Below, piece after piece: positions 29,501 to 53,048 of a stretch of 64,000 bases of DNA (position 1 is its first letter; each line of letters starts with the position of its first letter). The DNA is from Psammoneis japonica (lineage: Eukaryota), in the NCBI GenBank assembly GCA_008632985.1, contig QPGO01000012.1:620001-684000 (forward strand). Direction: 5' to 3'. The notes under the pieces were generated by a model. It was given only the letters and a program-made list of their open reading frames with translations. It did not search any database and was not told the origin of the DNA. Both the position numbers and the translations under genes were made by a program.

Positions 29501-29673
29501 AGAAGTTTCTCACGACACTGTTTGTGCTGTTTGCCACCAAGATGAAAAAACATGATGGCCTGCATCAGAGGGGCAAAAAAGGTGGCACAAATCACAGGTC
29601 ATCGTTTCACGCACTGAACCAGCGCACGCACATCTTCATTTGTTGGGTCGATGTCTCAATCATTTAATTTCCT

Positions 29674-32600
29674 TGCAGACTAGCGACATCGGGACGATCT
29701 AACAGACATCTAGGACAGATGACAATCGTGCGCTAGAGATGAGAGAAAGTGAGCAGAGAGAGATCATCGGATCTCTCAATGCTGTCCATGCCAGTCTGTC
29801 TGAGAGAAGGGAGTGCACTCCCCATCTTGGATGTCTGTCACCCTCCCCTGATGAGCAATGCAAAAGCTCATCAAGAAAGAAAAGGAGACAATCCGAGAAA
29901 AAAATGGGACCAGAATGGCAAACTAAAGAGACACACAGAACAGAACAACAATCAATGGCAGTGTCCCATGAGACGACGGGCATGGCAAGAGCAAAGCATC
30001 CAACCCACAGCCTTGGTCAGGACATCAGCGGGGTCAATGACACCTGGGACATGTCTTGTGACAATTTTCCCCGCATCACGCCAGTCTTGGATCGCAAAAT
30101 GTTGAACATCAACATGGCGGGATCGTTTGGCAGGGACCTTGTTGTTGATCATCCGGACAGCGGAAGAGTTGTCAATGTGCAAGGGAGTGGGGTCACATTG
30201 AACAAAGCCCAGTTCTTCGAGAACCATGCAAAGGCACAATGTCTGCTTGGCACCAGTGACAGCAGCAAGAAATTCAGCCTCAGTGGAACTGGTGGCTGCA
30301 ATGGTTTGTGCACGGCAACGGCAGTCAATCGCAGCACCAGCAAGGACATGTGCACAGCCAGCAGCAGATCTGCAATGCCAAAGTTCATTGGCATGTGCTG
30401 CATCAATGTGACCAAGCAGTCAAAATGGATCATCAGCACGGGGGAACTCAGGAAGAGATGGATCATCCTCGAGCCACTCAAAATCACGGGAAGGTGGGCC
30501 CGGATCATGCTGGTTTTCTTGCACATCAACCCCCAGTGTTTGGCACGACGGAGATGCTTGGCCATGTGCTTGAGAGAATCACAGTGGACGTCAGCAGGAG
30601 CCTTGGAGAACTTGGACAAGGTGACAACAGGGCAGCCAACATCCAAGCAACAACACGAGTGTGCAAAGACCAATTCACCCAAAAGAGAGCAATGGGAGAA
30701 ACCGTGAGAGTCAGAGAGAGCATCGTGTTAGGAGCACCCTCTTCAGGACCTTCAGCAGTGTGCAACTCGGGAGTGCAGTCAACGGGTGTGGGGGCAGCCT
30801 TGAAGTTGCCATCGGTTTCATTCGCAGCGGGAGCATCCCATCCATGAGTCTTGAAGACACGGTCAAGGCAGCTGGCAATGTTGATTGTGATCGAATCATC
30901 ATTCTGAACAACATCAACACCATTGAATTCAGTGACAAGGCCAAGACATTTGAAAGGAGGGGTGTCCTCGTTCTCCATCTGAAGAGCTTTTCCAATGTGA
31001 TCGTAGATTTCCTTTGCAACTTTCTCGGAAGGACAAGCAAGTGCAAAATCATCAACTTGATGGAGTAAGAGGACCTTGACACCATCATGTTGACCAGAGC
31101 AAATGCACTTGTCGTGAGCAGTGTTGCAAAAAAGAAGTTTTGCACCAGTGAGAATTGAGTTGATGTGCTTTTCCCACAGAACACCAGCTTCGGGATGGCC
31201 TTGGAGAGCATGCTTGAGCGGGAGGACACAGTGACGAGGGACCTTCTTGCCAAAGTGTTTTTCGCACCAAGTGGCACAGGCATCATCAATGGCAACAAAT
31301 GCCGGTTGGGAAGGGCCAGGAGAATGAGCGCATGCATCTCGTGCATCACCACCATAGACTTGACAGGACATGGCAGCACTGAGAGTGAAAAACATCTTTT
31401 CAATCGAGCGTTCCACACAAGAAGAGTGCGTGGAAGTCAGTTTGTGCAAGGCTGGCACAGCTGACTTGGATCCGTCTCCACATTGTTGAGAGCGACGTTG
31501 GCCATCTGGTTTCACCACATGGTCCCAATGCAGACGCACAACATTTGCTCCAGGAGGACGAGGTTGCGGGGACCATGCATGCCGAGTGCACAAAATTGAT
31601 CCAATTGGCGCTTCTCTCCTTCTTCCCATTCAGGCCATGTTTCAAGTTTACGGAGCTTGGCACGGGCAAGACGGTCGAGAGTGGCTTCTTCCGGAGTAAT
31701 TTCACGGGAGCTGACAGCGTGGAGGTGAGCATAGAAAACGTCCGTCAGAATGGAATCCTCAGAAAAATCATCATCAGGGTAGAGAACGGCTGCAATGGAT
31801 CGCACATCTTCCAAAGTGAGCTCCGGCGCATGGGAGTCGTCTTCCATTGCGTCATGGTCAAATGGCTCTGCTTCCTCAAAGGCTTTGTTGAGGGTGCGAG
31901 AGTCGAGACGTCATTCAGGCGCAAACGCAAGTTCAAAAGCAGGAATTTCATCTTGGCAGACCTGCAGGAGTGCGTTTTCAGCATCTTGCGGCATGAAGAC
32001 CTCATGCTTGTTGATGGATGCAACACAGGCGCCCACAAGCTTGTTCCGAGTGGCATGGAGAGAAGAAAACAGAGATGCCGCGGGACTGCGTTGCTTGATT
32101 TCCAAGACATGGACGCGTTCCATGAGAGCACACTTGGAGAACACAAAACCACAGCTGGGATCTTTCGGAGGGCGTTTCATGGTGCAAATGACAGTCTTGG
32201 CAAAAGGATTCGATGAAGACACAAACATTGGAACGGTGGTGTCCTGTGTTTCAGCGGGAAAAGGCTGGCCATTTTCCATGCATTGCAGCTGGGCAGCATT
32301 TGGAGGGAGTTGATCAAGAGAGAGGTCATTCATGCCCTCATCACAGCAGACGTGTTTAGCTGTCTTGACTTTGTCAGTCTCCGGATCCCACCAAAGAACA
32401 TTCTTCAGGGTGTTCGGGAGATGTCCAAGGAATGCACCTTTCTTGGAGTTGGAGCGAAAAGTGGCGGAGCGTTTTGTGGAGCATTTGGCCCATGCTCGAC
32501 ATCCAAAAGTCTTCAGGGCAGCAAAATCTTCGACCTTTCCAGTGGCAAGGGTGATGGGAGATGCATCTTGATCTTTCGCAGGAGCAGCATTCTTGATGCG

Positions 32601-35600
32601 GAGGCAGTGGTAAAAAGCACAGGGCCAGAATCTGATCGGGAGATTGGCGCCAATTAAAATTGCACGAATCGCGTTCTCGACTGTCAAATGTGAGCGTTCC
32701 ACAGGGCCACATTGATTGGAAGTGCCAGCGCCTGATGGGCAAATGTTGCACTGGAATTCTCGTTGGAAGAGGTCACGAACTTTGGGGTTCTTGTGCAATT
32801 CCCCTCCCTGGTCCACAAATGCATGTTTGTCATGACAATTGGCGAGTGTTGATCCAAAAATCGGCGAAGCCACTTGAGAGGACGGCCTTCGAGACTCGTG
32901 CAACACCATGAAGCATGCGTGTTTCATGGTCGTAGACGGTGATCCAACATGTTTCACCATTGTAACCAAGGCAGTCAGAGGTGCGGTCTTCATTCTTGGA
33001 GGCCTGACCAGCGAAAGCAAAATCCACAGTGAGACCTTGATGTGGTTGGGTCACCGTGCGGGTTGAGTTTGGTCCAGTGGGAGTCTTGACTTGTTTCACT
33101 TGGATGCACGTGGGGCAGATGTCAAGAACTGGGTTGGCATGACGGAACTTAGGAACTCCCTTGACACACTTGTGGGCATGGCACAAGTGATGATCGCTGG
33201 GATGTCCAAGGTGTTGGTGCCAAAGGAGATGTTCAGTCTCAACTTTCAAGGAGCGGACCGGGGCAGAACTTGACGGAGGCAATGAACAGTGGGCAATGGA
33301 GTTGCATTGCATCGGAAACAACTCAGCATCTGTCAACCAAGGGTCAGACGGTGTTTGCTGAGCATTGATGTAGAAGATTGCACGTTGGCAGGCATCGTCA
33401 ACATCATCAACAGGTGTCGAGTCAGGAGTTGGAGGCGTGGACAATGCATTTGTCGGAGACGGTGGAACTGGGGGCTGGGCAAATGCTTTCCCATGTCGGA
33501 GGATGCCATGAACAATCACCTCTTGGGCATCAGTTGAAGCAGCACAGGCACACGTTCCATCGGCGCAGGTCTTCTCGAGGGACTCGGAACGAACGGCTTT
33601 TGGTGTAAATCCAGAAGCCCGCGCAAAATCGCATTCATCGATCAAAGTAGAACGGAGACTTTGATGGTAGAAAGTGCAAACAAGCAGGAAACCATCAGCA
33701 TTTGCAGCGGGCACTTGTAGACAACCAAAGCCATGGGGGACCGCATCAGAGCCTTCAGCAGCAGGGAGCATTTTCAAGGGACAGGGATCATCCGAAAAAA
33801 AAATGCAGGCCTTGTAAATGCCATGTGGTGCTTGAACATCATCATCCGGTGGGATTTCTACAGTGGCAAGTTCATTTACAAAGCACTCCACAGTTTCCGT
33901 AGATTCTTCCACAGAAGGAGGAGCAGTTTCCGCAGGACTTTCCGGGGTGATCGGAGGTGGATCTGGCACTTCGTCCTTGGGTGACAAGTCAAGAGCTTGG
34001 AGGGGAGCTGCCAAAGGAGGATTGGCCAGATTCTGGTGATGGAGGCGTCGTGCAGGGCATTTGGGAGGTTCCTTGACACGAAGAGCAGGACTGTCTGGTT
34101 CCTTGAGAATCGCAGCAATCGTCTCGACAATCTTCTTCTGAGTGAACTTGTGTTCCTGACTCTTGTCTTCCCTGGCGGCGACTGTCTTTCGATGCAGGTG
34201 CTTTCCATGTCGAGTGTTGCTGAGAAAGACATCCAGCTCACCAGGATCATCGAGAGAAGCATCAACATTAGAAATGATGGCTCGCAGTTGGAGGAAATCC
34301 CTGAACAGAGCACAGCAACTGAGAATCGTGAGATTGTTTTGGTGTGGGTGGCTCTTGATCAGTTCATGTGGACGCTTGGTCCAGATCGGAAGAACATCGA
34401 ATGGGATCATCTTGAGGGCAGTGTGTCCGTCTCCACAGCATTGGCGAACAATGTCAGGATGCTTGGAATCGGCTGGGAAAATTCCAACCTTCTGAACATG
34501 CTGAAAAAGTGTTGGCTTCATGCGGTCGAGGGGTGCACGCATGCGAAGTGGCAGGTCATCAGTCGGATCGTTGCCACTCGTGAAACCCCAGTTGCCACCA
34601 TCTTCAATGAAACACCAGAGAGGATGCACATGGATCCCACAAGCCGAGGCTTGTTGGGTTGCTGCAGTGTGCCATGCTCGGATTCCTTGAGGTGAATTGT
34701 CGTCACACGTCAAAGGATCACGGAGGAAAGACTTGGCATCCCAATCAGTGTGATGAACAAATGGGGAACCATCGGCAAGAATGACACGTTCAGTGCCGTC
34801 TTCACAAAAGAGATTTCCAGATTTGCAAGGTGCCAGGGACTTCCCCAACACTGCTTTTCCGGATTCCTTGCATTGACAGCAAGCCAGTGCAGCTTTCGGG
34901 AGTCCTTTTGGGTTGAAAGTGCACAAGGCACCAGTCGTTGTCAAGGAAGGAGCCACAGCAGCAGTGGTCCCAGTGGAAAGCGAAGGAGGTGGTGCAGAAG
35001 CCGTGGAGGTCTTCAATGCGTTGGTCACAGCTTGCTCAACTGTTTTGGTCCAGGCAAATGAGCAGCAAAGGCCTTGGCAAAGTCTTCAGGAGTCGGACCT
35101 GCCATGACAGTTGGTTGAGATGCAGATCCTGGAGGAGACGCTGGTGGTGGGTACGGAGCATCAGAAATGTCATCCCAACAAAGACAACTCTCCAAACCAG
35201 GGCAGAAGAAGAGACTGACAGTCCCAACACATGTGGTTGTGGCATCTTGGGCGTCTGAGATGGCTTTGATCATGGCTTTCTGAAGATTGGCGAGATTCAG
35301 ATGGACTGGAGCATCTTGAGGAGCAGCCACGAAGAGGGGAGCTTTGTCAACAAGTGGTCCAATCTGTTTGAGATCCTCAGTCAGGGTGGCCTGAGGTGTG
35401 ATTGGATCATGAACGATCTTGTGATGGATGGTTGCGACTGCATCGGGCTTGAGGCCTGGAGGAGCAAATCTGCCCAGAATGTCTTCAGGATCAGGTGTCA
35501 CATCTGAACAAAGCTCATTCAGGTGAGAGTGGGCATCAGGTGGGCGATTCTGCTGCTTGAATTTGACCTGCATCGTCGTGATCTTGGTCAAATCGACGGA

Positions 35601-35989
35601 AGTTTGTTTGGTCGGTGCCATGGTTGCGCGGGAAAAAAATCAAATTCCCATGTAGAATGCTGGCATGTGATCTATGGTGGTCGTGATGATCACAAATCGA
35701 GTGAGAAAAATGGCTGTGACAAAGATGATGATTTCAACGGAGAAACGTCGCCAAATCACACAGCGAAAGTTGCAACGCAGTTGCATTGAGGAAGAGAAAC
35801 AGTGCACTGCTGCTCATGGCCTTGCGGACTGGCGATGTCGGGACGATCTAACAGATGTCTAGGACAGATGATAATCGTGCACTAGAGATGAGAGAAAGTG
35901 AGCAGAGAGAGATCATCGGATCTCTCAATGCTGTCTGTGCTGCTCTGTCTGAGAGAAGGGAGTGTGCTCCCCATCTCGGATGTCTGTCA
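29674..35989 (-). mobile_element. Full-length degenerate Ty1/Copia LTR retrotransposon (QVDD-type RT)
   Basis: 167-bp LTRs at 29674-29840 and 35823-35989, near TSD ttcct/ttccc, PPT aggggaggg. Domain order gag, LWHQHLGH (GAG-pre-integrase), integrase (DQGGEL, GPVER), RT (ALQGHPEAG, QVDD), RNase H (HIDNSSA..RSRHVDV..ADVLTK). Confidence 0.92.
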
Positions 35990-36099
35990 TTCCCATCCGC
36001 TGATTGGGATCTCACCTTTTTTATTCATTTGCACTTGTCCACATTAATCCCACCGCTGATTGTTGCCCCACGTCCCAAAAATGTCCTTTTTCATGTGCC

Positions 36100-39000
36100 C
36101 GCTGTAGCCAACAATCAACCAGCCCGACCGGCACATGTTCATGGATCAACCAGAAAATCCATTGTGTGTTCTGTTGATTCACTCACATGCAGCAACACTT
36201 GCATTTTTCAATTGCAAGGTGTGCATTTGATGTGTTCATGTCATTGGTTTTCACAACACATTGTGGCGGCAGTCAGCATGGTGCAGCAATCATCAACGCA
36301 TGCTCTGCATTGAGTCAACCGAATCATGTCAAAAATGCTTTGTCCATCCTGCGATCCTTCCACAGCCTTTCCACCATGTCAACTTCTGACCACTGCATTT
36401 TTTGCAAAGTTGACTGGGGGAAATCGCCGCAGGCTCTGTGCAGCCTCCATTGCCTCTTTCCGCATTGACCATGGGGCTGATTCTGCCGCCTTCACCGTCC
36501 CCTCCTGCCCAAGACAAGTTGTCCAACTCTGCAGACCCCACTGATGAATGATGAATGTTTGGAAGATGGCGACGTTGATCTGAAGTTTCGCTTTGGCACA
36601 ATGAACCAAGTGTGAATCATGTTGTTTGCACGCCATTGTTGTCTGCCAAGGAAGCATGCTCTCGCCTTGGACACTCCCTTGGGTGCTCACTTGCTGCTGC
36701 AGATGTCAATGGTGAAGTGGATTTTCCATCCAATGCAACCAGCAGCAGTTCTGTTATTGGCGCAGAAGAATCTTGTGACTCTGATGACGCATCCACCGGT
36801 TCTGCTGATTCTGGCTCCATGGAATCGCTGCCAGAGGCAATCCCTTTTGCTGACGATGACCTTGCCAAAGATTTGTTCAATGACAGTGGTCACCTTGATG
36901 ACAATGACAAATGCAACAACACAGATGACGCCACAGGCGATGCCGTAACTGACACTGTTTGTCCAAGAAAAACAAAAGCCGGCTCTTTGAAGAAATGCGG
37001 CGCGCCATTTCTGACTGCTCTTTGCACTTTATTTTGTTGCATGTTGAGTTGCTAATTTCCTTTTTCCTTGTTTGCAAGTCATTGAGACAGATGATGATGC
37101 AATTGTTTTTGCAAGTGGCAACGGACAACATTGCATCACCAAAACTCAATTTGAGAGGACAACAGAAACTCAAAGGGCAAGGAAGGCCTTTCTTTCTGCT
37201 CTTGTTTGGAAGCCCACCCCTGACTTTCCAGCACTTCCTCATTTGTGGCACAATCCCAAGAATGGTCTCTGCCACTTTTTTGAGCAAGTTGTCTCTGTCA
37301 ACGACATCATCGGTAAATCTCTTGGTTGCATCTGCAGTTTCCATTACATTCGAAGCCGTGGTTGGACTTGCAAGCTGGAAAAGAAGAAGGGGAAGGCCAC
37401 TGGGGGCTGTGTTCTGCAGTGCCAGAAAGTGGTGGAGAGGCCTTCAACAACCTGGAGTGCTGCAAAAAGAACCTTGTGGCCATGATTGACTTCATGCACC
37501 ATTTTGTCCAGTCTGAAAGTCTCTGCAACCACACAACGTTCCTGAAGAAGAGCAGTTTCATTGCCAAGGCCAACTTTGTGGCACAGATTCAGAGCATCGC
37601 CGCATCCATCATGGAGACTCTTTTCCTGCCACACATCGACACTGAAAGGGGCAACACCCACTTTTGGTCCAAATTAGTTTTTTCTCAGTGCTCGAAACCA
37701 AAGACCTTTTTGCTCGTAGCAAACAATCTCCTGCAAGCAGTCGACACTGAAGCTGAACTTAAATCAGGCAATGCAGTGAAGAACCTGCTGAAGACAGGCC
37801 CAGGTTCTGTCAGGGACCTGGTCAAAGACAAGGTCAGTTGTCAAAAAAGAGCACATCTTTGTTGCAAGTTGGTTGAAGAGCAGATGCAAAGCACATTTTC
37901 AAAGAACTGCAACAATCTCAACCGGCACAAAATGAAGAATTTGGCAATCGTGCGCTCGCGGGTTCACGATTTGATGTGTGGGCACCTCAAGCCAAAGCAG
38001 AAAGAAGACTTCACCTCTTCCACTTGGATTGGTTTGACTCAGAAGGACCCATCCTAAAGGCTCTGTGACCACCAAAGGTCAGTGTGTTTTCTGTCAGGGC
38101 CGTCATCCTGCATCTTTTTGTGTTTTCAAACTAATTTCTGGCTGCCACTGATTTTTCTGTTGGAACACAAGGATCCCTTTCTCCATTAAAAAGAAAGGCT
38201 GTCATGGACCTGGCTTCCAGCCGTCACTCTGTTGATCCCACCACCCGCCCCAATGCCAAGTTCCCCCCACTTGGCAAACTTGTGCATGACGTCGATGAAG
38301 ACGAAGATGATGCCCTGTCCGCAGCTGATGATGAGTCTCACCCCATGCCTGTTGCTCTCCGTCCTGCGACCCCTTTTTCTCCCGTGTCTCTGGACGACTG
38401 GGAAATTTGCTTTCCACCTGACTGCCAATGCCCAGTCCCCAGCCTGAGAGAAATCGCCAAGCTCAAACATTTCACCAGGTCAAACAATGCTCTGTTCAGA
38501 TGACAAGCTGTTTTTAAAACATTTTTCCGGTCTCAAACTTCATTTCGGTGCATTGGCGCATTTTGTTCTGGAGTGTGGCACCATCGATGAGAAACATGAT
38601 GAGGGTTTTCCCAGAGGACCTGTGCACAATTGTTGAGTTGACTTTGGCTGTTGCAGACAGAACTGGGTTGTTGGACCCGACCGTGCACCACAGCAATCTC
38701 CTTTGTGTGGCTTTGACATGTTTGATTCTGACTCGGATGAAGATGCAGAATTTCTTCTCCAAGTGAAGGCCACGTCAGCCAATGCTTTCGATTGCATGCA
38801 GCACTGCCAGGATGAATTGTGCGTCAAATGTTTTGACCTGCCACCATCCTGCAACAGCAAGGAGAGGACTCAAATGTTCGGCCAACAAGCACAAGATGCA
38901 CTTGATGCTGAACATGCCACAAACAAGCTTCACATGCTCCAGCTAAATGACATGAGCCGTGGTGGCAGGACATGTGATCACAAGGACATGTGATCACAAG

Positions 39001-39300
39001 GATGAACAGGACTGCTGTTGGTTCACGCACAGAGACACAGGGTGTCTCTGCTTGTTGGGCAATGACAAGGTGGGAGACACTTGGTCGTTGAAAGCTTTGT
39101 CAAACAGCCGGGACAAGGCTGGAAATTGCTGCATTGACAAATGCGGCATGAGAGACCTTGAGGCAAGGGTTGGCATTTTTGCTCGTGCCATTGACTGCAA
39201 TTGCAACTGATTCATCAGGGAATGCTGTGGTCTGATGTGTCTCCGGAAGGAATGGAACATCATTTGTGAAGGCTCAAGTGTTCTGGTTTGCAAGTTGATG
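36100..39300 (+). pseudogene. Degenerate ORF remnants of unknown function inside the DNA-transposon block
   Basis: Long, biased coding-like stretches (e.g. 37326-38057, 38703-39210) with acidic tracts, broken by stops and frameshifts. No family recognised. Confidence 0.3.
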
Positions 39301-39303
39301 AAT

Positions 39304-42300
39304 TGAATGAATGCCACCATGACAGCCAAGAATTGGGTGTAAGACAAGACAGAGTGTTGAGCAGCATCAACAGGTTCTAGAATTGTGAGATGTTGTGCTG
39401 CTGGGGCCACCAATTGAGCGACAGTGGACCAATCGCCAATGGCACATAAACTGCCTGTGTTCATGACAGCATGTCAGCATTTGTTCAGTCTCCCCTCGAA
39501 CCAACACCAGCTCCGCTCGGGTCAGATCGACAGACAAGTGCAACCTGATGCTGCCCCATTCCAGGGCAGTGATTGCATTTTGGGGGTGGGAAAAGCCGCG
39601 CCTGTGCGGCAAACCCATTCGGTTTGTCCCCTTTTGGGACTTACCACAGGACATGACTCATGATTTCCCGGAGCTTCGGTCCAGGCAACAACTTGGTTAG
39701 TGCATCCGCTAGATTCGTGCGTCCGTCTTCCCAAGCAATGCGCACTGTTCCAGCGGCTTGTGCCTCACGAGTCCTGTGACAGGCAATTGCATTGTGCTTC
39801 TTCTTCAAAGTGGACTCTGGTTTAGTTGAGTTCTTGAAGACAGCTTCATTGTCGCAGAAAACGTCAGTGGCCCCATCCATGGGGATTCCGAGCATCCGAA
39901 GCTTGCAACGCAAGGCTTCAATTTGCTCCACTGCAGTTTTCACAGCCACGAACTCTGACCCAAAAGCAGAGGACTCTACGGCATTCTGCCGCTTAGAGTG
40001 ACACAAGATGGGCGCTTGTTGGACAAAGATCAGGATCCCAGTGTGGGACCTGCGCATCACACGGCATCCGGCGTGATCAGCATCGACAAAGCAAGTGGCA
40101 GTCACGCCATTCCCGCGTGCCTCCGGCACATTCGGCGGCATTGGTTCAGCCGCGCCAGGGCAATGTTCTTCCCAATCACACTTGGCAAAGCGACTCTCGT
40201 CAAAGACGGGCTCAGTGTCGTTGAACACTGGCGCAGACTTAGAATGAGCCTTCAAGCATGCAAAGACATGGAGCACCTCGTCCAGGTGTCCAACTCGTGG
40301 TGCCGCCAAGCAGGAGGACATGAGCGAGACAGCGACAAAAATGTCCACTCGCCCCAGTTCAACCACCCACCGTAGCACACCAATGAGGCCTTGACAGCAG
40401 TTGGCCGTTTTGGCGTTCAACTCAGGTGAACCGTCCAGTTCAGGCCTGTGTCCCGAGCTCAAGGGTGTCGACGCCTTCGTCGGAAGACGCCTGTCAGTTT
40501 TCTTGAGCTCTAATTCAACGTCAGCTGATGCCCTTTTGACACAAAGGTCAGAGGACATAGCCCAGCGTGTCTCACCGTCCGAGTCAGACAGCTGGAACTT
40601 TCTGATCTGGGCGCCTGAGTGCTCCTCCGGCTCGCAGACGCTTCCGTCCTTGAGCGTGTGCCCAGAGCTCATGTAATCCATGACCTTCTGAGGTTCATGG
40701 GAGACGCACAACAAGTCGTCCACGTAGACAAGTGCATGTTCCCAGTGCTTGAAGCCACCCGGCTTAACCGCAGCCCGCATCCAGACATCCGGGTCAGCCT
40801 TGCAAGACTCGAACCCAGCGCCCCGCAGAGCAGCTGCCACATGCTCCCTAAATCTTGCACCTGAAGATTTGAGACCATGCAAGGCACGGACAATGATCAC
40901 CGGCCTTCCTTTGTTCTGCTTCCCAAATTCCAGGCCAGCAGCAGTGTGACACTTCTCCCCAGTGTGTGCGTTCAAGCAGGCATTCTGAATGTCAGCACTC
41001 AGGACCTCCAGGTCATTCAGAGCTGCTGCAGTGAATGCCATCCTAATGCTGTCACGCGACACCACGCTGGAATGTGTCGATTCCTTAGGTGGATCGGTTT
41101 GATGGCCTCCGACCACGAACCTCGCTTTACGTTGGAGAGTGCTCTTGATGTCAAAGTTCATGTGACAGTCAATGTGTTTGTGCCCGACCGGCACAGTGTC
41201 GTCATCGCGGAATTCGAACGCAGGCATGACGTTGCGCATTTCCTTCTCGATGGCTTTGAACCAGAAGTCGGTCCCGTTCTGTTGTCTGTCTCCATGGCTT
41301 CCTTGACAGATTTCGGGAGTTCAATTCCGAATTTATGCGCACGTTTCCAGTGACGCGACTTGACTTTCTTCAGGATCCTCGACCTGCGACGCAAGACGTC
41401 TCGGACCCACCAGTTAAAGGCTGGTTCACTGGCTACTTTGTTTGCTGCAGCGCACTCAGCAACCTCGACTGGATTGGACTCCTTCAAATCCTTGAGAGGA
41501 ACCCAGGATGCAGTCCCATCCTTCCATTCGACTTGCAGGTCCCAGCCCACTGTCGTCCTCCTGGGAGCACGCCTGCCAGTCTCAGTCGTTGTGCACCCGT
41601 CATCGGCCGTTACGGCACGGGCATCACGTCGGTGATCGACTGTTTCCTTCATGATCTGGTGGGCATTCCCTTCAGAGTCGATCTGAGCGAACAGGTTCTC
41701 TGCAATCACGTCAGCAGCACAGGAATCAGTGGATCCGTCAGGGAATTCCACGTCGTAAATCCTCGAGTCTAGGACAGGGTTGTCGTTCCCAGTGCCGACA
41801 GGAACCCCGTCGCTATCTCGCTTGCGTGCAATGACCCTAGCATGAGTCAGCTCGCCTCCTCGTGGTAACATGACTTGAGCCGTGAGATGTTCATCTAGCC
41901 CTTCCGGGGTGTGCTCATCAGCTTCCGGTTTGGAAGCGTCAGGTTCCACGGGTTCAACGGCATCGTCCCAGTCGTCCATGAAGTCATCAGGGAGTTCAGG
42001 GAAGTCAGCACTGGCATCCTTTTCCGGGACGCTAAGCCGTTCGATCAAAGCTTGATCGACCGATGCAAGATCCGTCTGGATCGCCGGAGTTTTAAGGTCA
42101 TCCTCCGGCATGGCCCATGCATCCTTCCGGATGATGGGTTTGCCTGATTCAGGCAAAATGATGAATGCCACATCGTCAGTGCAGTTGTCAGCTACCCCGA
42201 GCCAACGGCCAATGCACTTCTTTTCGTGTGGGAACTCCGCCACAGGCATGCAGCAGTGCACAGGTTGACACCAATCAAAGAGAGAGAGGGAAGAGATGTC

Positions 42301-45300
42301 GGGTGTCGAACCTGTCACCTCCTCTTCTGGGACTCATCCTCCCATGTCCGACATGCCAGTCGCAATCATGCGTCGGATGTCACATGTCCATTTGGTGCTG
42401 TGAGACCAAAGTCGCCTGTGAGCGCCAGTCCGGCGTAGAGTCACACGGACTCTTTTCTTCAACTCATGAATGGATGCCTCGGCTGGGTTCTGCCAGGGGC
42501 TGCATGGGGTGGACACCTCCTGGTGTGTCCTGTGTTCCTTGCAGATCTCCTTGGTCTGGCCTTCCGCCATTTCCGGCGCGCCATCCGACACAAGGACCTG
42601 CGGCACGCCAACATCATGTGCAAATGACATGACGGCGTCTGGGTGGTCCTGTTTCCTCTTCCAAGGACAGAACCTGTCACACCCTCTTCTGTTGGTAAAT
42701 GCGCTTCCTCCCATCTCACCATGTGTCGATTTGACCTTCGAAAACATCTGGTCGGAGTAGAACCGTCCCTTGATCGCAGGGAACTCAAGCCAAGGGGCTT
42801 TCTTCCGGACTTTCCATTCGGATGGTGTGCAGACATTGCAGACCCCTGCCTGGGTCGTCACTCTAAGGGTGTTCTCAGCGGCCGTCAGGCCAATGTTCCA
42901 CCTTTTAGAGAGCATCTCGGGCGTGACAGTCAATGCACAATTCGAGGTCGAAAGTGCATGCACCCGTTTCCGCTCGGCACAATCCGGGTGGACATCTGAG
43001 TCATGCCGGTCGTGGAGCCCGTCTCCCTCAGTGTCGTTGTGGGAGACATTTGCCTGAGCAACCAGGCGGCGATGCAATGAATCGTCGTCATCAGCATCCA
43101 CAATGACATTGTCATCGTGATGGGACATTTGGTGTGAATGAATGGAAGCGACACACCTGGTCGCATTCATCATCGTCGACCGTCCGTCCGACTTTGCTGA
43201 TCCTTGGCGCACACTGGCACATGCATGAGCTTCCTCCTTTTGCGCCAGGGCATCAGCAGAAGGCTCCCATTTCAGGGGTGATGTGAGTTCCAGCCGGGGG
43301 AGGTTCTCCAGATCCTCCTTTGTCGGCTTGTGTGAATCAAAGACTGAAGCAACACCTCGCACTTGCAATGGCATCCTGATGTTGAGTCAGGGAAAGAAAC
43401 AGAGTGTGTGCCAGTTGATCAAACTGGCGAGGGGCATCGTGGACAGTCAGCCCATTCGCTCGCAGTTGGTTGGGGCACAGGAGGGTGTCAGTCATCTTGT
43501 CCCCGAAAAACATGGCCTCGTTGACTGACAGCAGGTGTGGTTGTCCATCAGTTGGATCAACCCACACGGTGGCAGCTGTGCAAATGGGAATGTTTTCCAT
43601 TGGTGCACACTCTTCGGAGCAGGGGTGAACCACGACAGTTCTGTCGATGTCAGAGCACATCACAAAATTGGACCCAACAGCACACGTGTCAGCGTGCGAG
43701 TCCAAATCAGTGGTGGCTTCGTCATCTGAATTTCCAGCAGATGACAAAGAGACATGCACATCCTTTGAGAATCGCCTGGACAAATGGACAGTGCCAGCAG
43801 GTGCAGTGACAATTGGTTCCATGCCTTTCAGTGCTGGCACAACTGTTCATTCCTCCTTCTGAGGTTTCTTGTGCGCACTGCGTCCGAACTGGGTGCCTGC
43901 ATTGGCGGCAGGTTTGTCAGGCTCTTCGGAGTCTTTCAGTGCATCAGCAGGTTGAGAAGCAGGCTCAGCAACAGCCGCTTTCTTTACGGCACGAGTTTTG
44001 GTGTCGACCGACTCAGCCTCCGAGGACGCAGCAGCAGCTTTGCGTTTCTTCTCGGCCTTCTTGGCATCGCGGAGCTTTTGGACTTGCTCTCGTTCGGGAC
44101 CGTCAAGAGCACTCCACTCTTCGACAGGATGATGGCCTGCCCAGATTCTGGGCTTGTCCTTTTTAGGTTGGTGCTTCCGCCAGGGTTGGTGCGCCGATTG
44201 TTGCGGCGTTGGATGGATGCAACCCCGCGAGTGTCAGCATTGCGGTTCTTGGCATTCTCGACCAGAGTTTTCATGTGCTGCTGGCATGCCTCAAAGTCCG
44301 CTGGCTTTGTTGGGTCTCCATCCACTGCGCTCTTGCCAGTTTCCAACCTGGGGTCGGAGACACCCTTCAGAAAGTCAGAGACCTTCTTGGTCTCGGCTGC
44401 CGGTTCGTCAAGCTCAGACAAGTCGTTGTGAGCTTTTTGATGACGCTGAATGCACTGGTCAAATGTAAATCGACCCCGTCCGGTGTACTTTGCGGCAGCA
44501 ATTTGTGCATGAGCACGGTTCTTTCGGGCAGTGGCGGCAGCCGATCCTTCCGCTTGCCTCTCAAGTGCGAAGAAGGCAGTGCGACCATCGCGACTGCGAT
44601 TGGAAGGTTTGACAAAAGCCCATCCGGGCCCCCCTGTCACCAACTTCTTCAAGAGGTCACACAGGCATTGTCCCATCCTGTGTGTGCTGAGCTCCTGCAA
44701 GACGGGCAGCAGCAATGAGGTCCTGGTCAATGGCAGTGCAGGTGGCAGCCAACATCTCGGCGGTGACACCTTCATGTTCCCCAGTTGGGTGGATGAGGGG
44801 CACTCCGGTGACGGCACTGTGGTGGTGATGCAGTTCGGTCTCCAACAGCTCCTGGAAGGCAGGCCAGTCACATGGGTTCTTGAGTTCCATGGCAGTTTTG
44901 GCAGCTGATTCGTCATCCGAGTCGGCGGACTTGAGTTGCTCCAGTTCCGTCAGACGTGCCGTCCATGTCCCAATGACGTTGCCAGCGAAGAGAGCAGCGG
45001 TCGGCTCTTGGTTCCGGGCTCTGCGGCAGTCAATCCATGCGCGCAGTGCCTTTAGCTTACGATTCGCCAGGTGTGGAAAGCGGACTTGAGGGTCAGCGGC
45101 GGCATCCACACTCTTCATGGTGCCCTTTGTCATGTCGGCAATTTCAGTCAAAGGGACCTGTTCCAGGTCCTCGACAGTGGTCAAGCCTTGACGGGCTGTG
45201 TGGGTGCACGTCTGTGCATTGTATCCACAACGCGTAAGACAGGCGGTAAAGGCTGCGGCAGCGGCCATGGTGTGTCAGCAGTTATTCGCGTTTCGACGCG

Positions 45301-45998
45301 TGAGCATCCACTTGTGTGAGTGGAGGAAAGTGAGAAAAATGTGTGGTTCTCGTGCCGATTTGGCGGTTTCTACTTAGCGAACCCGCGAGCAGGCGGTGTT
45401 ACTCCCAAGTAATAATATCCAACAGACATGTATCCACATGTACAGTGTCTAAACAATTAGATAACGTATTTTGATTAATGAAATGTATACGATCAAATAA
45501 CAGACCTCAACACATAAATCATTATGTTATCTTAATCACGCATGTTTATATGTCTTAGCCAACATATTCCATCCACGTGATCAAACATTCCGTACTCCAA
45601 CGTCATGTCTAACGGATCACAGCTCTGGTCTCCAAGAGCATATCGTTCATATCCATGAACATTGATATATATAAAGGACTCAGCGATTACGCGAGCAACC
45701 ATGGGACCAACATGGCGCTTACCGCAAAAATCGATCGATCGCAACGACACCGTCGTACCGTTCGCGATGCCCGTTCCAGGCGATGAACATCATAGCGTGT
45801 TGGCTCTGATAAAGTGAATAAATACTACCATGATAGCTAAGAATTGGGTGTAAGACAAGACAGAGTGTTGAGCAGCATCAACAGGTTCTAGAATTGTGAG
45901 ATGTTACGCTGCTGGGGCCACTAATTAAGCGACAGTGGACCAATCGCCAATGGCACATAAACTGCCTACATTCATGACAGTGTGTCAGCATTTGTTCA
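39304..45998 (-). mobile_element. Full-length degenerate Ty1/Copia LTR retrotransposon
   Basis: 184-bp LTRs at 39304-39487 and 45815-45998, PBS ctttatcagagcca, PPT gaggggagac. Gag starts MAAAAAF (45268), protease LDSHADT, integrase, RT (ALHGLKSSG, YVDD) and RNase H (FCDNEAV..PESTLKKKH..NLADALTK), ending at 39641. Confidence 0.93.
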
Positions 45999-46299
45999 GC
46001 ATGGCAAATTCTGTGATGCCTGGATGCATCTGTCAAAGAAGAACAAGCTTCATGCCGCTGAAAACCTCCCACCAATCATGCCCAAGGAATCCGCACTTCT
46101 GCTGGGAGGAAGGGTGTCATGCATTGAAACCCACCTCCTGAGTGATTGCGCGAATGCCTGATGCATTTGGGCATGGTGTCTGCATGTTGATGCAACATGT
46201 AAGAGGCAAGGAACCATCATCTGCTTGTTGACACAACACAATGAATCTGCATGTCTAACCTGCAGCCACTTTCATGTTTTATGTTGGCAAAATGGTCAA

Positions 46300-49200
46300 C
46301 ACCTAAAAAATGTACATGTCCGCACTGCTTGAGTCTGCCTCCTCCTTGCATGCCATCATTTCTCTTGTCCACTTGACGAACATCACAGCCCAATCAATTT
46401 TTGGTCAAACTGCCATGACCATGTGCTCTCTCCTTGCAATTGGCAACTGAACTCAAGGCGGCACTGGGTTGGCACAATTCTTTGTTTGGAAAACAAGAAG
46501 ACCCCTCCTGATGCTGGATGCGGGCACGTTGCACATTGATGGTTTGCCGTTGCTCTGAAACTCTTGTGGCAATGTGTGAACAGCCTGGTGTCTCCACAGG
46601 TGGACTCACAGGCTGTTGCCAGCTTGCAATCAACAGAATGAACCGCGGCCTTCACACTGCCATTGATGTCCTGGCAGATTCCAACAACTCTTGTGGGGCA
46701 TTTGTCATTGGAGCTGTTGTCCATGTCAAAGTCAACAGTGGCCCAATCATGCCATGGCCCCTCCTTTGATCTGTGTTGTGGACATGCACGCATGTGTTCA
46801 CCGTCACCAAGTTTCAATTTGTTCCACATTTTGAATCTCTGTTGATTTGGTTCCAGTTCTTGGATCACTTCAAGGAAAGCCTGGCACGGTTTTCCTGTTT
46901 CCTTGTCAGCTGTTTTGGTGTTCCCAAATGGTCCATCAACATGACGCTGTCAAACTGACCACATTTGAAAACAAAGTTGGGCATCTCATGCGTGGCAGTT
47001 ACACTGGACATTTCGATGTGTTCATCCATGTCAGAGTTTCCGATTGATGAGCCATCTTGATCAAGTGTGTCGACACAACATTCAAAAAGCATGGTCTTGC
47101 ACACCCTTTCACAGGTTTGGCACACAAAGGTTTCCTCTCCCCACTTCTGCGTGGTCTTTGATGTTTTTTTGGCTTTGGTTTTAAAAAGTCTCTCACCTGT
47201 AGAAGCGCACGTTTGCATTGGATCTCCCAGGAACATCCGGTTGAACAGGGTGTGCAGCTGAGCGTGATTTTTCCCAGTGTTGTTGTCAACAGTCCTGTTG
47301 CCACAATGAATTGTTGTGTCCATGTGCACAACAACTCTCTTGACTCCACAGCCATGGGCTTTGCTGTCAAGCTGCATTTCCTTGGGAAGCTGATGGGAAC
47401 AGCAACAATGTGCATGATGGCAAAGAACACATTCAAGAAAGGACAAAAAGGTCAACATGTCTGACAGTGTTGAGCCTGTGCACCCGTTGCCCTTTGTCTG
47501 GGGTTTTTGTGGCGATGCTTCTCCACACAATTCTGCATTGTGGGAACAAAAACTGACATGGGTTGTTGGTGTCTTCCACATTGGCATCAGATTCTGTTGA
47601 AGGTGACTCAAGTTTCTTCTTGGCGACGGTCTTTCTCAATTTTTGGTCAAGACACTTCTCCACGTCAGTCACGAACTCTTTGTTGAGGATGCCTTGGCAC
47701 CTGTCCTGTGGGATTGGGCACGCGAGGGATTGGACACCTCCCTGGGAGGGACACGAGAAATGTTGTTTTCCATTGATTGCCTTCAGAATCTTCCAAGATT
47801 TGACAAACAGCTGGTCCATCTGAAAATTGTTGAAATCGTCTTCCAGCAAGAAGCCAAAGCCATGGAGCTTGAGGTTCTTGATTGCAAATTGGATCGTACA
47901 AGGTTTTTGGTCAAATGCATTGCCATGGTCATGGTCTGTTGCACAGTGCAAATCTTTCCTGAAAGGAAATGCACTTGGTGGCAAGGCAGGGTCATCCTCT
48001 GGCATTGTTTCCTCAGCAGGCATGGTGGCTGACTCAGTCAACTGCTGTTTCCTTTTGCAATGGGAGTGCGTTTTCCCGGAGGTTGCTTTTTTCTCCGATG
48101 GCATGCGCTCAGTTCCTGCACTCGGTTTTTCCTTCTGCAATGACTTGATCTTAGAAGCAGATGGAAAGGTGGTGCATTTCTTTGCTTGTTGTTTGTGAGC
48201 TTTTTCCATTGTCTCACGGGTGCCACTGCATTGCATCACTGCAGCTAGACAAAACAACGTTCCAATCTTTTTGGAGTGTGTCATGAGGGTCATTCTGGTG
48301 AAACCGGAGCTCAAACGGCCTTTGGGACAGTCACAAAAGGCACTGGATCCAGTGGACCCCACCACTGCCACCAACTCCTTTTTGAATGATTCCTTTTCCT
48401 TCGGAGTCAAACCATGATGTGCAACAGTGGCTACATTCTCTCCACCTTGAGCCTCCCAAGAGTGGAGATGATCATCCATGGTGGCGGCAAAGACACCCCA
48501 TGGGTTGCTGCCAAAATCAACACCATCAAAGGCATTTCTCAAGGGGTGCATCATGCATGGTCTGGCTGGCAGGGCAATGGCAAGCTTCTCTTGCCATTTC
48601 AGGAAATCTTCCATCCGTCCATTGGTTGAGATTTCATTGGCGGATGCACCGTGGCAGCCCAGTGCTGTTTTGTTGAGGCGCGACACTGTGTTCAGATTTG
48701 TCAGAGTGCAAGACAGGCCATTTTCTTTTGTGGGTGGGAATGAGTTGGAGGCATTTGTCAACAAACACATGCACAGTCGGTGAACCCAACCAGCACCACC
48801 TCCATTGGTTGCCTTGCAAACGCATGTGCAGTCCTGTGATTTCTGGTCACCAAAGATTGGGCCTTGGACAAGGAGAATGTGCATTGGCCAATGTCGCCTG
48901 CCCAAATTGACCATCATCCTGGGAGGGTGCTTCTGAAGATGCTTCAAATCCTCCAACAGAAACGATGACATGTCGTGGTGTGCCTGTGTGTTTGCAGACG
49001 AATCAGGTGATGATGAATCATCCTCGAGGGAATTGCCACTGTCGTTGGTGGAAACAGAGGAGGCGCCTTTGTCGGTGCTTGGTGGGAAACCCAAATGCCG
49101 CCAGGAGAAAGAGTGTTCACGAGCTTTCCTCTTCACAAGGAGGATGCAGAACAACCAGGGTTTGAGTGGATGTCGTTGGCAGGCATCTGTTCCTGTCTGG

Positions 49201-50130
49201 TCTGCATGCGAGCCCATTGGCAGAAGTGGGTCCTTCTTGGGATTGAAATCAGTGGGGAGATTGTCGCAGGTGTTGGTGAACCATTTGTTGCAAACTTTTC
49301 TCCGAGGTTGCAGTCGTTGACTGGAACAAACTTGCAGAAATGTTTGTCCATCAATTGGCTCAAATTGAGATTGTGATGGTCATCAAAAAGGGAGTGGGCA
49401 AGCAAGTCCCTCAACATGTCCTGCATCTGGAAACCTCATGGCACACTGAGGTTTTTTAGCAACTTTTTGTGCCAAAGTGCCTTGGAGGCATCAAACCTCT
49501 TTTTCTTATGAAGACGTTGCAGCAAGGTGAGCAGGGAATCGCAGAATCCTCTGGTGGCACCGGAATTGTCACACAATGTGATCAGCTCAAGAGATGCTTC
49601 CTCAGCCAATGTGAAGCTGCAACCGAGCGGAGGGGATGACTGTCCTTTGCCAATGTCATCAGGGGGGTGGGCCGGCAGCACGTTTTCTTCTGCATCCACA
49701 CCAACGTCAGCAGCAGAGTCAATGGTGCCAGGAAACATTTCAAAGAGAGACAGGGTGTCGTCGTCCTCTCTGTCGGTGTCAGAACCATTGCTGCGTGTCG
49801 AGTCATCATTGTCTTGTTCTTTGGGGGCCCCATTCTCAGAATCCGAATCAGTGGCAGTGAACTCTACATTGCATGCAGCCGGGGAACTGGTGTTGGAGGT
49901 GTCGATGGTGTTTTGGGAGGAAGAGGGAATGTTGGAGTGAGATTGGAAGGAGGACATTGATGGTGAGTCCTCATCCCCACTTTGATGGAGGAGCAACACA
50001 GTTGCTTGGGACAGAGTGCTCAAATCACCAGAAGAGATGTCGACACAACAGATTTGGCGGGGCTTGCATTTGCAGCGATGGGCACAAACCATTTGCAACG
50101 GATCAAATTGCAGGGTGGGGGTGCACACGT
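46300..50130 (-). mobile_element. Plavaka/CACTA-like DNA transposase pseudogene
   Basis: HADQTGTD..RHPLKPWLF...RE..SWRHLGF, GDQKSQD..C, NAFDGVDFGSNPWGVFAATMDDHLHSWE, GERLFKTKAKK..KTTQ and RACPQHRSKEGPWHDWATVDF resemble Plavaka-type transposase motifs recalled from memory. Confidence 0.7.
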
Positions 50131-50750
50131 TTGACGGGAAACAGTGTGGACTTCTTGGAAAACAGGTTTACAGATTGATTTGAAATCGAATCATTGAACA
50201 GGCAGTGGGGTGATTGAAATGCATGGGCATGCCGTGCAACCGGCTGGGCATTTAAAAATGCAGTGAGGGATAATTGCACCACATTTGAAACTCAGGTGAG
50301 TGAATTCAAAACGCACAAGTGAACATGTGGGCATGAATGAAATAAATGCACATCTCATGTTCGGGACATGAGGTTCATGACATGCAGGGAAATCACATTT
50401 GCAATGGTTCTTGCAGCAGCAGCGGCAGGCACAAACCATTTGCAAAGGATTGAATTGCAGGGTGGGGGTGCACGCATTTGACGGAAACAGTGTGGACTTG
50501 TTGGAAAACAGGTTTGCTGATTGAGTTGAAATCAAATTGTTGAAAAGGCAGTCAAGTGATTGAAAACACACGTGCTGTGCAGCCGGTCGGACATTTAAAA
50601 ATGCAGTGAGGCATGATTGCATTGCATTTGAAACTTGGGCAGGTGAGTTCAAAATGCACAAGTGAACACATGGGCATGAATGAAACAAACGTGCATCTCA
50701 TGTTTGGGACATGAGGTTCACGAATGCAGGGAAATCACATTTGCAATGGT
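50082..50750. repeat. Two diverged ~330-bp direct repeats (period ~347 bp) between the divergent transposon ORFs
   Basis: gcacaaaccatttgcaa..ggat..aattgcagggtgggggtgcac at ~50082 and ~50429, both ending aaatcacatttgcaatggt. Confidence 0.85.
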
Positions 50751-50837
50751 GAACCAGCCGGAAAACAACTTGCACACAATCAGCACTGGAAGGGACGAGC
50801 ACATGGGACAAAACCACACAAAAAACAGTGCAAAGAC

Positions 50838-52214: not shown

Positions 52215-53048
52215 CGCCTGTTCAGCAGATGACATGTGAAAAGCAGCAGTCATGTTCATTGTGAATGACATTGTAGACACAATCTAAATTGAACAACTGC
52301 ATTCCATGGTGCCAATTGGAAAGCAATTGGGGAAGGGCACAACAAAAATGGCATTTTGGGATGCAAGTCAAGCGATCTGTTGTCAGTCAGTTGTCGGAAG
52401 TGTTGGAATGGATCATCGTGATGGAGTCAACTTTTTACGTTGTAATCAACTTGTTGGTTTTGCACGTCCTTGATTGGAAACTGTGGTGACATCTGCTGAA
52501 CAGGCATCAGCTCCAGTTCGTGTGTCTTGGTGCAATCCACCACATGGTCTTCCTCATCCCCCGACTCATTGTCCCCTCATCCACTTTCCTGTCACACTCT
52601 GCCACAATCTTCCTGTGCAAATCCTCCCATCAGCCTGGTCGTTTGCTCACAACATCTTGTTTGATTTCCCTCACCATCTTCTTGAAGAACTTGTTTGCCC
52701 TCGGTGACCATCCCTTGCTCTTCCAGCTGCCCTCTTGTGTTTCCTGGGTGCACTCCCTTCCGCAGCTCCATTCTTGGAGTTCTCTGCTGTGAAGTGCTTC
52801 AGGCGTCTCATGCACTGTCTCTTCTTTGCCCCACATTGCATCATGTCTCAAGTCACATGAAAAGATCCTCTGTGCATCAGGGGCCCAATTGGGGAAGGGC
52901 ACAACAAAAATGGCATTTTGGGATGCAAGTCAAGCGAACTGTTGTCAGTCAGTTGTCAGAAGTGTTTGAATGGATCATCGTGATGGAGTTGACTCATTAC
53001 ATTGCAATCAACTTGTTGGTTTTGCACGTCCTTGATTGGAAACTGTGG
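51880..53048. repeat. Inverted duplication (51880-52231 vs 52490-52837) interleaved with a direct duplication (52324-52486 vs 52886-53048)
   Basis: Direct sequence comparison. The ORF track shows KGWSPRANKFFKKMVREIKQDVVSK on both strands. Confidence 0.9.

Follow-up and report, generated by a model that had tools for sequence, protein, structure and literature searches.

Nearly all conserved tyrosines (Tyr) of the reverse transcriptase (RT)/RNase H frame of Copia1, a retrotransposon in the diatom Psammoneis japonica, have been replaced by histidine (His) or cysteine (Cys). Copia1 lies in a stretch of 64,000 nucleotides (contig QPGO01000012.1 of assembly GCA_008632985.1, positions 620,001 to 684,000 of the forward strand), hereafter called the window, whose own numbering is used throughout. 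The replacement is probably the protein footprint of a regional hypermutation that turns TpA into TpG or CpA at the level of DNA, after integration, and that is of the same kind as the process reported from Bigelowiella natans. The changes have one direction, are specific for a dinucleotide, follow a hierarchy set by the flanking bases, are confined to certain tracts of the window, took place after integration and are found in both classes of mobile element.

Copia1 is a Ty1/Copia long terminal repeat (LTR) retrotransposon, as judged by its RVT_2 domain, an integrase upstream of the RT and the LTRs that flank it. The rve match of the integrase was weak (E=0.0086, below the cutoff), and its position is upstream of the RT on the element strand. 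The LTRs are 192 nt each with TG...CA termini, and the nearest named relatives of the RT are RT proteins of Fragilaria crotonensis. The element is laid out as follows:

39296..39487, minus strand: 3' LTR of Copia1, TA-depleted (3 TA), with a polypurine tract just upstream on the element strand
39641..41320, minus strand: RT/RNase H frame of Copia1, 559 aa from stop to stop; RVT_2 at E=3e-9, 37 bits
41158..45274, minus strand: remaining coding region of Copia1 in five stop-to-stop frames (gag, protease-like, integrase, integrase C-terminal part)
45200..45998, minus strand: 5' leader and 5' LTR of Copia1 (LTR 45807-45998), undepleted, 53 TA in 800 bp

The frames at 41158..45274 contain 0–0.5% Tyr and have a TA observed/expected ratio (o/e) of 0.0–0.22, and the 5' LTR has 13 TA as against the 3 of the 3' LTR. 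One in-frame TGA and no fewer than four frame shifts interrupt the polyprotein, and read contigs from sequencing run X1 carry 1-nt indels relative to this copy close to the frame breaks. Since the summed word depth of Copia1 in run X1 was 5000–9000, compared to about 55 for the single-copy flanks, the family numbers about 100 copies at 90% identity or above.

The initial annotation, made from the letters alone, had described the RT/RNase H frame as open for 532 aa and nearly free of Tyr. The second part is correct, as 2 of the residues are Tyr, 20 are Cys and 26 are His (0.4%, 3.6% and 4.7%, respectively), while its length has to be corrected to 559 aa. The six motifs quoted at that stage (RALHGLKSSG, DIQNACLNA, NCCQGLIG, FACLK, EALRCKLR and IACHRTREA) were all located in the minus-strand frame 39641-41320. 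Among the 40 relatives listed, Tyr accounted for 3.1–4.7% of the residues, Cys for 1.0–2.3% and His for 1.7–3.4%, and the Tyr content was at least 3.1% in all 120 relatives retrieved. An alignment with the 60 closest relatives gave 345 conserved RT columns (at least 70% conservation), of which 18 are Tyr columns. Only one of these keeps its Tyr, namely the Y of the YVDD motif (TAC), whereas nine now hold His, encoded by CAY in every case, and eight hold Cys, encoded by TGY in every case (Y in codons and contexts denotes a pyrimidine and R a purine). By comparison, 289 of the 327 conserved columns of other residues are kept (Fisher p=4e-14). The proposal that Copia proteins should have Tyr here and that TAY has become TGY or CAY thus applies to 17 of the 18 columns. 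It is also evident that the relatives do not themselves carry His or Cys at these positions: none was found at the 18 columns in 45 of the 60, one in 13 and two in 2. The Tyr columns therefore fix the direction of the change as TA to TG or CA, in line with the earlier proposal, and seven LTR sites with TG in one copy and CA in the other at one dinucleotide agree with it.

Y->H and Y->C were the commonest substitutions (17 of the 55 mismatches at conserved columns), followed by T->A (3) and K->E (2), both of which match the outcome of A->G at a T|A that spans a codon boundary. Of the substitutions that had been predicted to dominate, Y->C/H did so, whereas I->M/T and V->A did not, since 7 of 8 conserved Ile and 18 of 22 conserved Val were kept and V->A occurred a single time.

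The loss of Tyr is a dinucleotide phenomenon and not one of tyrosine as such. The TpA o/e of the RT frame was 0.19–0.20, compared to a median of 0.70 for the same region of 80 metagenome relatives, and since all 80 have values between 0.43 and 0.88, TpA loss is not an intrinsic trait of the family. With regard to codon positions, the RT frame contains 2, 5 and 9 TA at positions 1-2, 2-3 and 3-1, respectively, as against means of 22.3, 15.1 and 21.9 per 559 codons in the 11 nearest DNA relatives, so that substitutions are indeed enriched at TpA-containing codons. The loss is greatest at the non-synonymous position 1-2 and is therefore the opposite of what purifying selection leaves behind. The ratios of Copia1 to its relatives were 0.24 for TA, 0.80 for CG and 1.26 for CA/TG, with all other dinucleotides at 0.91–1.08. 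The GC content of Copia1 is 0.55–0.57, and that of the relatives mostly 0.41–0.52 (full range 0.40–0.59).

The depletion is not limited to Copia1. Regional confinement was assessed within the one 64-kb window, in which 1-kb bins are bimodal, with a TA o/e of either 0.02–0.26 (depleted) or 0.5–0.85 (normal), and the switch from one state to the other occurs within a few hundred bp. Depleted bins succeed one another by the tens, and depleted tracts lie at approximately 3.0–7.5, 12.8–14.3, 15.6–19, 25–45.2, 46–53 and 61–64 kb, and the following were delimited as features:

3000..7500, no strand: TA- and CpG-depleted tract containing a fragment at 5723-6307 that resembles phosphoenolpyruvate (PEP) synthase/PPDK_N
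12800..14300, no strand: short TA- and CpG-depleted tract, TA o/e 0.02-0.15
25000..44500, continuing to about 45.2 kb, no strand: largest TA-depleted tract, 1-kb TA o/e 0.02-0.26, with the second element Copia2 and most of Copia1
46000..53000, no strand: TA-depleted tract, TA o/e 0.02-0.10, beginning where the Copia1 5' LTR ends on its outer side
61000..64000, no strand: TA-depleted tract reaching the window end, TA o/e 0.10-0.19

When the depleted tracts (38.9 kb) and the normal ones (20.1 kb) were each pooled, TA o/e came to 0.089 and 0.603, and CG o/e to 0.51 and 0.93, respectively. Only TA, CG and CA/TG were shifted between the two (depleted/normal ratios 0.15, 0.55 and 1.33), with TC/GA at 1.01. 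The pooled CA/TG value of the depleted tracts was 1.63, and it was lower (1.43) inside Copia1. Besides Copia1, a further two Copia elements lie in the depleted tracts, along with the relic of a transposase and DNA without annotation, and Tyr makes up 0–0.7% of the transposon frames and 1.7–5.2% of the host-gene frames. At 25000-29500, 13000-14000 and 5500-7500 the CpG o/e falls to 0.02–0.35, with GpC up to 1.3–1.5; a search for Pfam domains in the frames of these three tracts found none, and they look like the oldest ones.

If TpA decayed neutrally over the whole genome, as a general bias of the species, it would be retained only where genes are under selection. In keeping with this, TpA is moderately low even in the gene tracts (o/e 0.60), and the depleted tracts are non-genic and presumably unconstrained. 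However, seven non-ORF stretches within the normal tracts, beside the genes, have a TA o/e of 0.60–0.86, and the process is therefore regional. The non-coding 5' LTR and leader of Copia1 likewise keep their 53 TA beside depleted DNA, and neither the bimodal 1-kb values nor their sharp switches would be expected from such decay, which we consider improbable.

An A->G or T->C change at TpA can at most convert TAA into TGA; it removes TAA and TAG and makes no new stops. The census of TAA and TAG agrees, with 3.8 per kb of strand in the depleted and 17.7 in the normal tracts. Frames thus stay open while their TAY codons mutate, and because TAA and TAG have been erased, long open frames occur in several reading frames at once (for instance at 30–35 kb and 46–50 kb); most of the 121 frames of at least 130 aa in the window lie within depleted tracts. 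The idea of missense erosion without new stops accordingly follows from the genetic code and holds in the census. That the erosion of Tyr is what inactivates the elements, as had also been suggested, we only infer, because Copia1 has the in-frame TGA and the frame shifts as well.

The bases next to TA determine the order in which it is erased: RTAY goes first, RTAR and YTAY follow, and YTAR is last. TA density in depleted relative to normal tracts was 0.004 for ATAC/GTAT, 0.008 for ATAT and 0.037 for GTAC. Intermediate values were obtained for ATAG (0.057), ATAA (0.075), CTAC (0.15) and GTAA (0.22), and the highest for CTAA (0.31), CTAG (0.32) and TTAA (0.41). The 16 TA remaining in the RT frame comprise 10 YTAR, 4 YTAY, 2 RTAR and no RTAY, and shared surviving TA sites were YTAR in 13 of 15 cases. 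On the sense strand, RTAY dropped from 13.0 per kb in the relatives to 0 while RCAY rose by 11.4, and YTAY fell by 10.8 while YTGY rose by 11.5. Tyr codons after a purine became His in 13 cases and Cys in 4, and those after a pyrimidine became Cys in 8 and His in 1 (Fisher p=0.003); the only two conserved Tyr kept belong to the pyrimidine-preceded class. The YVDD Tyr, thought at first to survive by chance, does survive, though not through luck alone, since its codon sits in the slow context CTAC. With such refinements the initial interpretation is supported.

The target reads as T-A-Y if the adenine is edited and as R-T-A if the thymine is changed. Among oriented events in LTRs and repeats the +1 base was a pyrimidine in 17 of 31, as against 4 of 30 unmutated orientations (p=0.001). 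At the palindromic RTAY, the 13 His versus 4 Cys represent an approximately 3:1 excess of T->C on the sense strand (binomial p=0.049), and RCAY gained 11.4 per kb versus 1.0 for RTGY in the RT region (11.4 versus 7.1 over the whole polyprotein). This strand bias is marginal and at most suggestive, and transcription and replication orientation are inseparable here because the elements, with one exception, share a single strand of the window.

With regard to the chemistry, enzymatic deamination of adenine to inosine in DNA is our leading candidate, at somewhat below an even chance. Oxidation of thymine at TpA is a weaker one, and something else would account for the remainder. If thymine is oxidised, the whole pattern might be a passive by-product of base modification in heterochromatin rather than of a dedicated editing defence: a TET/JBP-type dioxygenase would oxidise T at TpA in silenced repeats to 5-hydroxymethyluracil (5hmU) or further, and this base would now and then mispair with G and give T->C. 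Oxidised thymine mispairs with G, and the route would parallel the one by which 5-methylcytosine (5mC) causes CpG->TpG. We know of no thymine dioxygenase or 5hmU in diatoms, for which no specific search was made. The observed context can equally well be read as T after a purine and before A, and the same tracts also show the decay of CpG that 5mC on repeats usually brings about. According to the part of the report covered here, the 5hmU of dinoflagellates depends on TET/JBP homologues, is enriched in repeats, where it helps to silence transposons, and was found in older work to prefer TA and TC (PMC11572971). Here, on the other hand, TpC/GpA is untouched (ratio 1.01), and from the letters alone T->C cannot be told from A->G on the opposite strand. 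On balance we consider a passive by-product unlikely, though it deserves serious attention.

The remaining depleted elements of the window show the same loss of Tyr:

29674..35994, minus strand: Copia2, second LTR retrotransposon; both LTRs depleted; target-site duplication TTCCT/TTCCC; frames with 0.3-0.7% Tyr
14801..19800, plus strand: Copia3, third LTR element; TCTT flanks at both ends; LTRs with 6 versus 18 TA
47436..49379, minus strand: relic of a Plavaka-family DNA transposase; 648-aa open frame, 0 Tyr, TA o/e 0.03
5723..6307, plus strand: PEP-synthase/PPDK_N-like fragment; 0 Tyr; tract TA o/e 0.02, CG o/e 0.30

The RT fragment of Copia3 at 18374-19361 keeps 1 of 512 aligned homologue Tyr positions. 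Copia2 is too distant from the Copia1 homologue set (about 30% identity) for a clean comparison, in which only 2 conserved Tyr columns were available and none of 61 aligned homologue Tyr positions is kept. The Copia3 LTR within the depleted tract is the one with 6 TA, and the one with 18 abuts a gene tract. For the Plavaka relic, whose conserved columns were mapped by BLASTP, none of 7 conserved Tyr is kept (His 3, Cys 2, Phe 1, Asn 1), as against 116 of 157 other residues. Its assignment relies on 29 of 36 long homologues that match PF18759 at E <= 0.01, 24 of them above the Pfam cutoff; six further homologues of the frame that were scanned gave two sub-threshold matches. The PEP-synthase-like fragment has AHL where solved PEP synthases have TYL, and Cys in place of their Arg; this is either the decayed second copy of a host gene or a fragment that was captured.

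The footprint also exists beyond the window, since three public Plavaka-like proteins, P0350, P0266 and P0267, show the same replacement of Tyr by His or Cys. They contain 0–0.8% Tyr and keep 0 of 7, 0 of 3 and 2 of 6 conserved Tyr, respectively, compared to 11 of 14 up to 13 of 15 in four control homologues. P0350 is 1200 aa long with 0.1% Tyr and belongs to an 8-member cluster, five full-length members of which are on separate contigs. Such a cluster, like an RT frame open for 559 aa, might suggest that active elements avoid TA adaptively (for example to escape a TA-reading nuclease or insertion target) or come from a TA-poor donor, and that the new Cys and His are functional. However, open frames are to be expected anyway, because the changes make no stops. 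Moreover, 17 of 18 Tyr that are conserved across 60 relatives have been replaced while other conserved residues are kept, the greatest loss is at the non-synonymous positions 1-2 (2 versus 22.3), Copia1 has frame shifts and an in-frame TGA, and the LTRs of the element differ at TA sites. Adaptive avoidance or a TA-poor donor is therefore highly improbable.

Comparison of the three LTR pairs (Copia1, Copia2 and Copia3) yielded 44 difference events, 31 of which were TA-type: 24 were TA versus TG or CA, and 7 were TG versus CA at one dinucleotide. The remaining events comprised 5 of CpG type, 5 other transitions and 3 transversions. The Copia2 pair had 5 sites with TG in one LTR and CA in the other. 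As target-site duplications flank both Copia2 and Copia3, the two LTRs of each were identical at insertion. The mutations thus hit DNA after integration, and they did so on class I and class II elements alike.

These data bear on A-to-I editing of retrotransposon transcripts by an ADAR/ADAT-like enzyme, with fixation by reverse transcription. A->G at UpA resembles the 5'-U preference of ADAR, as described in the portion of the B. natans preprint covered here (bioRxiv 10.64898/2026.01.13.699255). T or U immediately 5' of the edited A is indeed common to ADAR/ADAT and to the changes seen here, and Copia1 is a retrotransposon with about 100 or more copies at 90% identity or above. However, RNA editing is disfavoured because the two LTRs of a single insertion differ at TA sites, and because the Plavaka relic, the PEP-synthase-like fragment and the unannotated flanks are even more strongly depleted. 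In addition, Tyr codons are hit about equally on both strands (9 His, 8 Cys). Genomic DNA is the substrate here, with a preference for a 3' pyrimidine, and TAG contexts are among the slowest, which is the opposite of the 3' G that ADARs favour. Editing of transcripts is accordingly very improbable, and ADAR-type editing of double-stranded RNA was rejected in view of the affected DNA transposon and non-transposon DNA, the independently mutated LTRs and the slow TAG.

A sequencing or assembly artefact, such as a systematic long-read miscall at modified TpA, was also considered. Long reads are known to be miscalled systematically at modified bases, and neither for the assembly nor for run X1 is a platform on record. 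Nevertheless, k-mer contigs from run X1 (depth about 55) reproduce the depleted single-copy flanks with 0–2 differences per 460–570 nt, which makes a base-calling artefact of noisy reads unlikely. The independent Plavaka-like proteins show the same loss of Tyr, and the TG/CA alternatives at one site of an LTR pair, taken with the normal TA of neighbouring genes, are unlike a motif-wide miscall, so that we regard an artefact as exceedingly improbable. The 40 differences between reads and assembly that were listed (of 468 places) comprised 17 of CpG type, 9 of TA type, 6 other transitions and 8 transversions. That TA-type differences appear despite the few TA left hints at a recent process, and these counts do not constitute a rate measurement. 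As to duplication, Copia1 is present in many copies, but word depth over the depleted flanks at 36–39 kb and 46–48.7 kb was 64–117 as compared with about 55 for single copy; old copies may have diverged beyond 90% identity.

Several points weigh against regional, post-integration hypermutation as set out above. A target-site duplication of Copia1 was looked for in both flanks and not found (CAAGT versus GCATG). The island at 45.2–46.0 kb is undepleted though the DNA on both sides of it is depleted, and a simple model in which whole tracts are targeted does not explain these 800 bp beside a fully depleted flank. Copia1 may be a recombinant of old and young copies, or the island may have been restored by conversion, so that the comparison of its LTRs need not reflect change after a single insertion. 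For these reasons it is chiefly Copia2 and Copia3 that carry the argument from the LTRs. It should be underlined that TA is assumed to be the ancestral state in the LTR pairs, and that the protein columns are what polarises the change independently. Run X1, the only run containing the stretch, is probably the assembly's own sample, with the platform unrecorded. Finally, the process is known here from the footprint left in the sequence of one window, and its precedent is a single preprint.

The normal tracts contain genes recognised through Pfam for an RNA-dependent RNA polymerase (RdRP) with a chromodomain, a protein with epidermal growth factor (EGF) repeats, a pseudouridine synthase fused to Ocnus, a GT10 fucosyltransferase, a delta carbonic anhydrase, an Mpv17/PMP22 protein and a CLC channel. 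The RdRP (E=5e-27) and chromodomain (E=3e-10) share a 799-aa open frame at 202-2598 on the minus strand, adjoining a TA-depleted tract. At 0.42 its TA o/e is the lowest among the host-like frames, and a homologue search with this frame gave no match at E <= 0.001. Two neighbouring frames that overlap (10593-12478, plus strand) encode the pseudouridine synthase and Ocnus/Janus domains; they are probably one gene, since both domains are fused in several homologues. The best match of the synthase has 51% identity and the best named one, from Cyclotella, 35%. As no identical entries were found for the host proteins, the window does not belong to the published B. natans gene set. The delta carbonic anhydrase groups with clusters that are mostly from Bacillariophyta. 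Run X2, from the same sample as X1 (30 million letters), covers only the gene-bearing 53771-56000, with word depth up to about 350; this coverage behaves like that of a transcriptome, and the run is not recorded as RNA. In a depleted tract, an inverted repeat of 360 nt with 94% identity (51874-52234 versus 52487-52844) has no TA in either arm, and most of the differences between the arms are of CpG type (8 of 13 events). On the plus strand of the window, the undepleted Copia1 LTR (45807-45998) has AATAAA where the depleted one (39296-39487) has AATGAA, so that the loss of TA also alters AT-rich signal-like words in non-coding DNA.

When compared with known systems, the footprint resembles fungal repeat-induced point mutation (RIP) inasmuch as context-specific transitions at the DNA level riddle transposon copies in repeat tracts beside normal genes. 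RIP, however, makes TpA from CpA, lowers GC and creates stop codons, whereas the process seen here destroys TpA, raises GC and is accompanied by a fall in TAA+TAG from 17.7 to 3.8 per kb of strand; RIP was rejected because of this reverse direction and the lack of premature stops. A diatom methyltransferase, DNMT4, is described as related to RID in the part of the source covered here (PMC9998398). As with APOBEC3, a deaminase-style hypermutation has left fossil footprints in LTR retrotransposons. APOBEC3 causes C->U on minus-strand cDNA before integration, seen as G->A on the plus strand, whereas here A:T->G:C changes occurred on both strands after integration and also affected a DNA transposon. 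APOBEC-type editing of cDNA was rejected on the grounds of the A:T->G:C direction, the involvement of both strands (9 His, 8 Cys) and the diverging LTRs. Deamination of 5mC at CpG has TpG and CpA as products and acts in the same tracts, but it cannot remove TpA, and CpG loss is slower here (CG 0.80 and TA 0.24 of the relatives in Copia1). Dinoflagellate 5hmU, to the extent of the source text covered (PMC11572971), is similar in occurring within the stramenopile–alveolate–rhizarian (SAR) lineage, in having repeats as targets and in preferring T in TpA; it differs in its additional preference for TpC, which is unaffected here, and that text reports no mutational footprint.

The closest parallel comes from B. 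natans, and the following holds for the part of that preprint which is covered here (bioRxiv 10.64898/2026.01.13.699255). Across mutation-accumulation lines, two integrated viral regions gained 231 mutations, of which 230 were A->G/T->C, and these were without exception at TpA; they occurred in 11 of 15 lines, at a rate about 1000 times faster than in the rest of the genome. Low-TpA coding sequences of this species were enriched for RT and DDE transposase domains, and an ADAT2-like DNA adenosine deaminase was proposed without proof (Mettrop et al., April 2026). Both systems have in common that almost only A->G/T->C at TpA is seen, on either strand and in discrete foreign or mobile regions, and that TpA depletion with CpA/TpG enrichment falls in clusters of 1-kb windows. 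The depletion is deeper here (o/e 0.02–0.2 as against a Rho of 0.45 for the B. natans region derived from a nucleocytoplasmic large DNA virus), and the host is a diatom with LTR retrotransposons and a DNA transposon rather than a chlorarachniophyte with a giant-virus insert. The process in B. natans has a measured rate, whereas in the diatom it is represented by its footprint. What is documented here beside that comparison is the flanking hierarchy RTAY >> YTAR and the co-occurring CpG decay. The covered text of the preprint contains no mention of diatoms or stramenopiles, and our literature search, which did not extend to subscription-only papers, turned up no description of diatom transposons that had lost TpA.

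Taken as a mechanism, the process would convert TpA to TpG or CpA by A:T->G:C transitions in silent, transposon-filled tracts and would spare adjacent genes together with their non-coding flanks. It would act on either strand of double-stranded genomic DNA and prefer an A followed by a pyrimidine; with T-A-Y preferred on either strand, the palindromic RTAY would be erased first and YTAR last. Its function may be genome defence against mobile DNA, or it may accompany such a defence. The choice of tracts and the current activity of the process are likewise matters that we infer. We put forward, tentatively and as rather doubtful, that diatoms and chlorarachniophytes share a dedicated defence in the form of an enzyme, guided by chromatin or small RNA, that turns T-A-Y into T-G-Y in the double-stranded genomic DNA of silenced mobile elements, a kind of 'reverse RIP'.

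For annotation, it follows that mutated elements score poorly in Pfam (RVT_2 at 37 bits on a full-length RT), and that long frames without Tyr but rich in Cys and His can be mistaken for novel proteins, spurious examples of which gene callers will predict. Before the 2026 preprint, deamination of cytosine, as in RIP and APOBEC, was what one understood by targeted hypermutation of eukaryotic mobile DNA; TpA-specific A:T->G:C change represents a different chemistry. The window adds a second, ecologically dominant algal lineage with the same signature. Here the process acts on integrated DNA and comes close to saturation, both in LTR retrotransposons of the ordinary kind and in a DNA transposon. 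Any candidate enzyme must reproduce the flanking rule, with RTAY fastest and YTAR slowest. Should that enzyme deaminate adenine in DNA, it would represent a natural counterpart of laboratory adenine base editors; a shared enzyme of the kind proposed would be a natural adenine base editor that kills transposons through the loss of Tyr codons as well as TATA-like and AATAAA signals, with no stop codon ever made, and if it is homologous in diatoms and chlorarachniophytes, the process would date back to early SAR eukaryotes.

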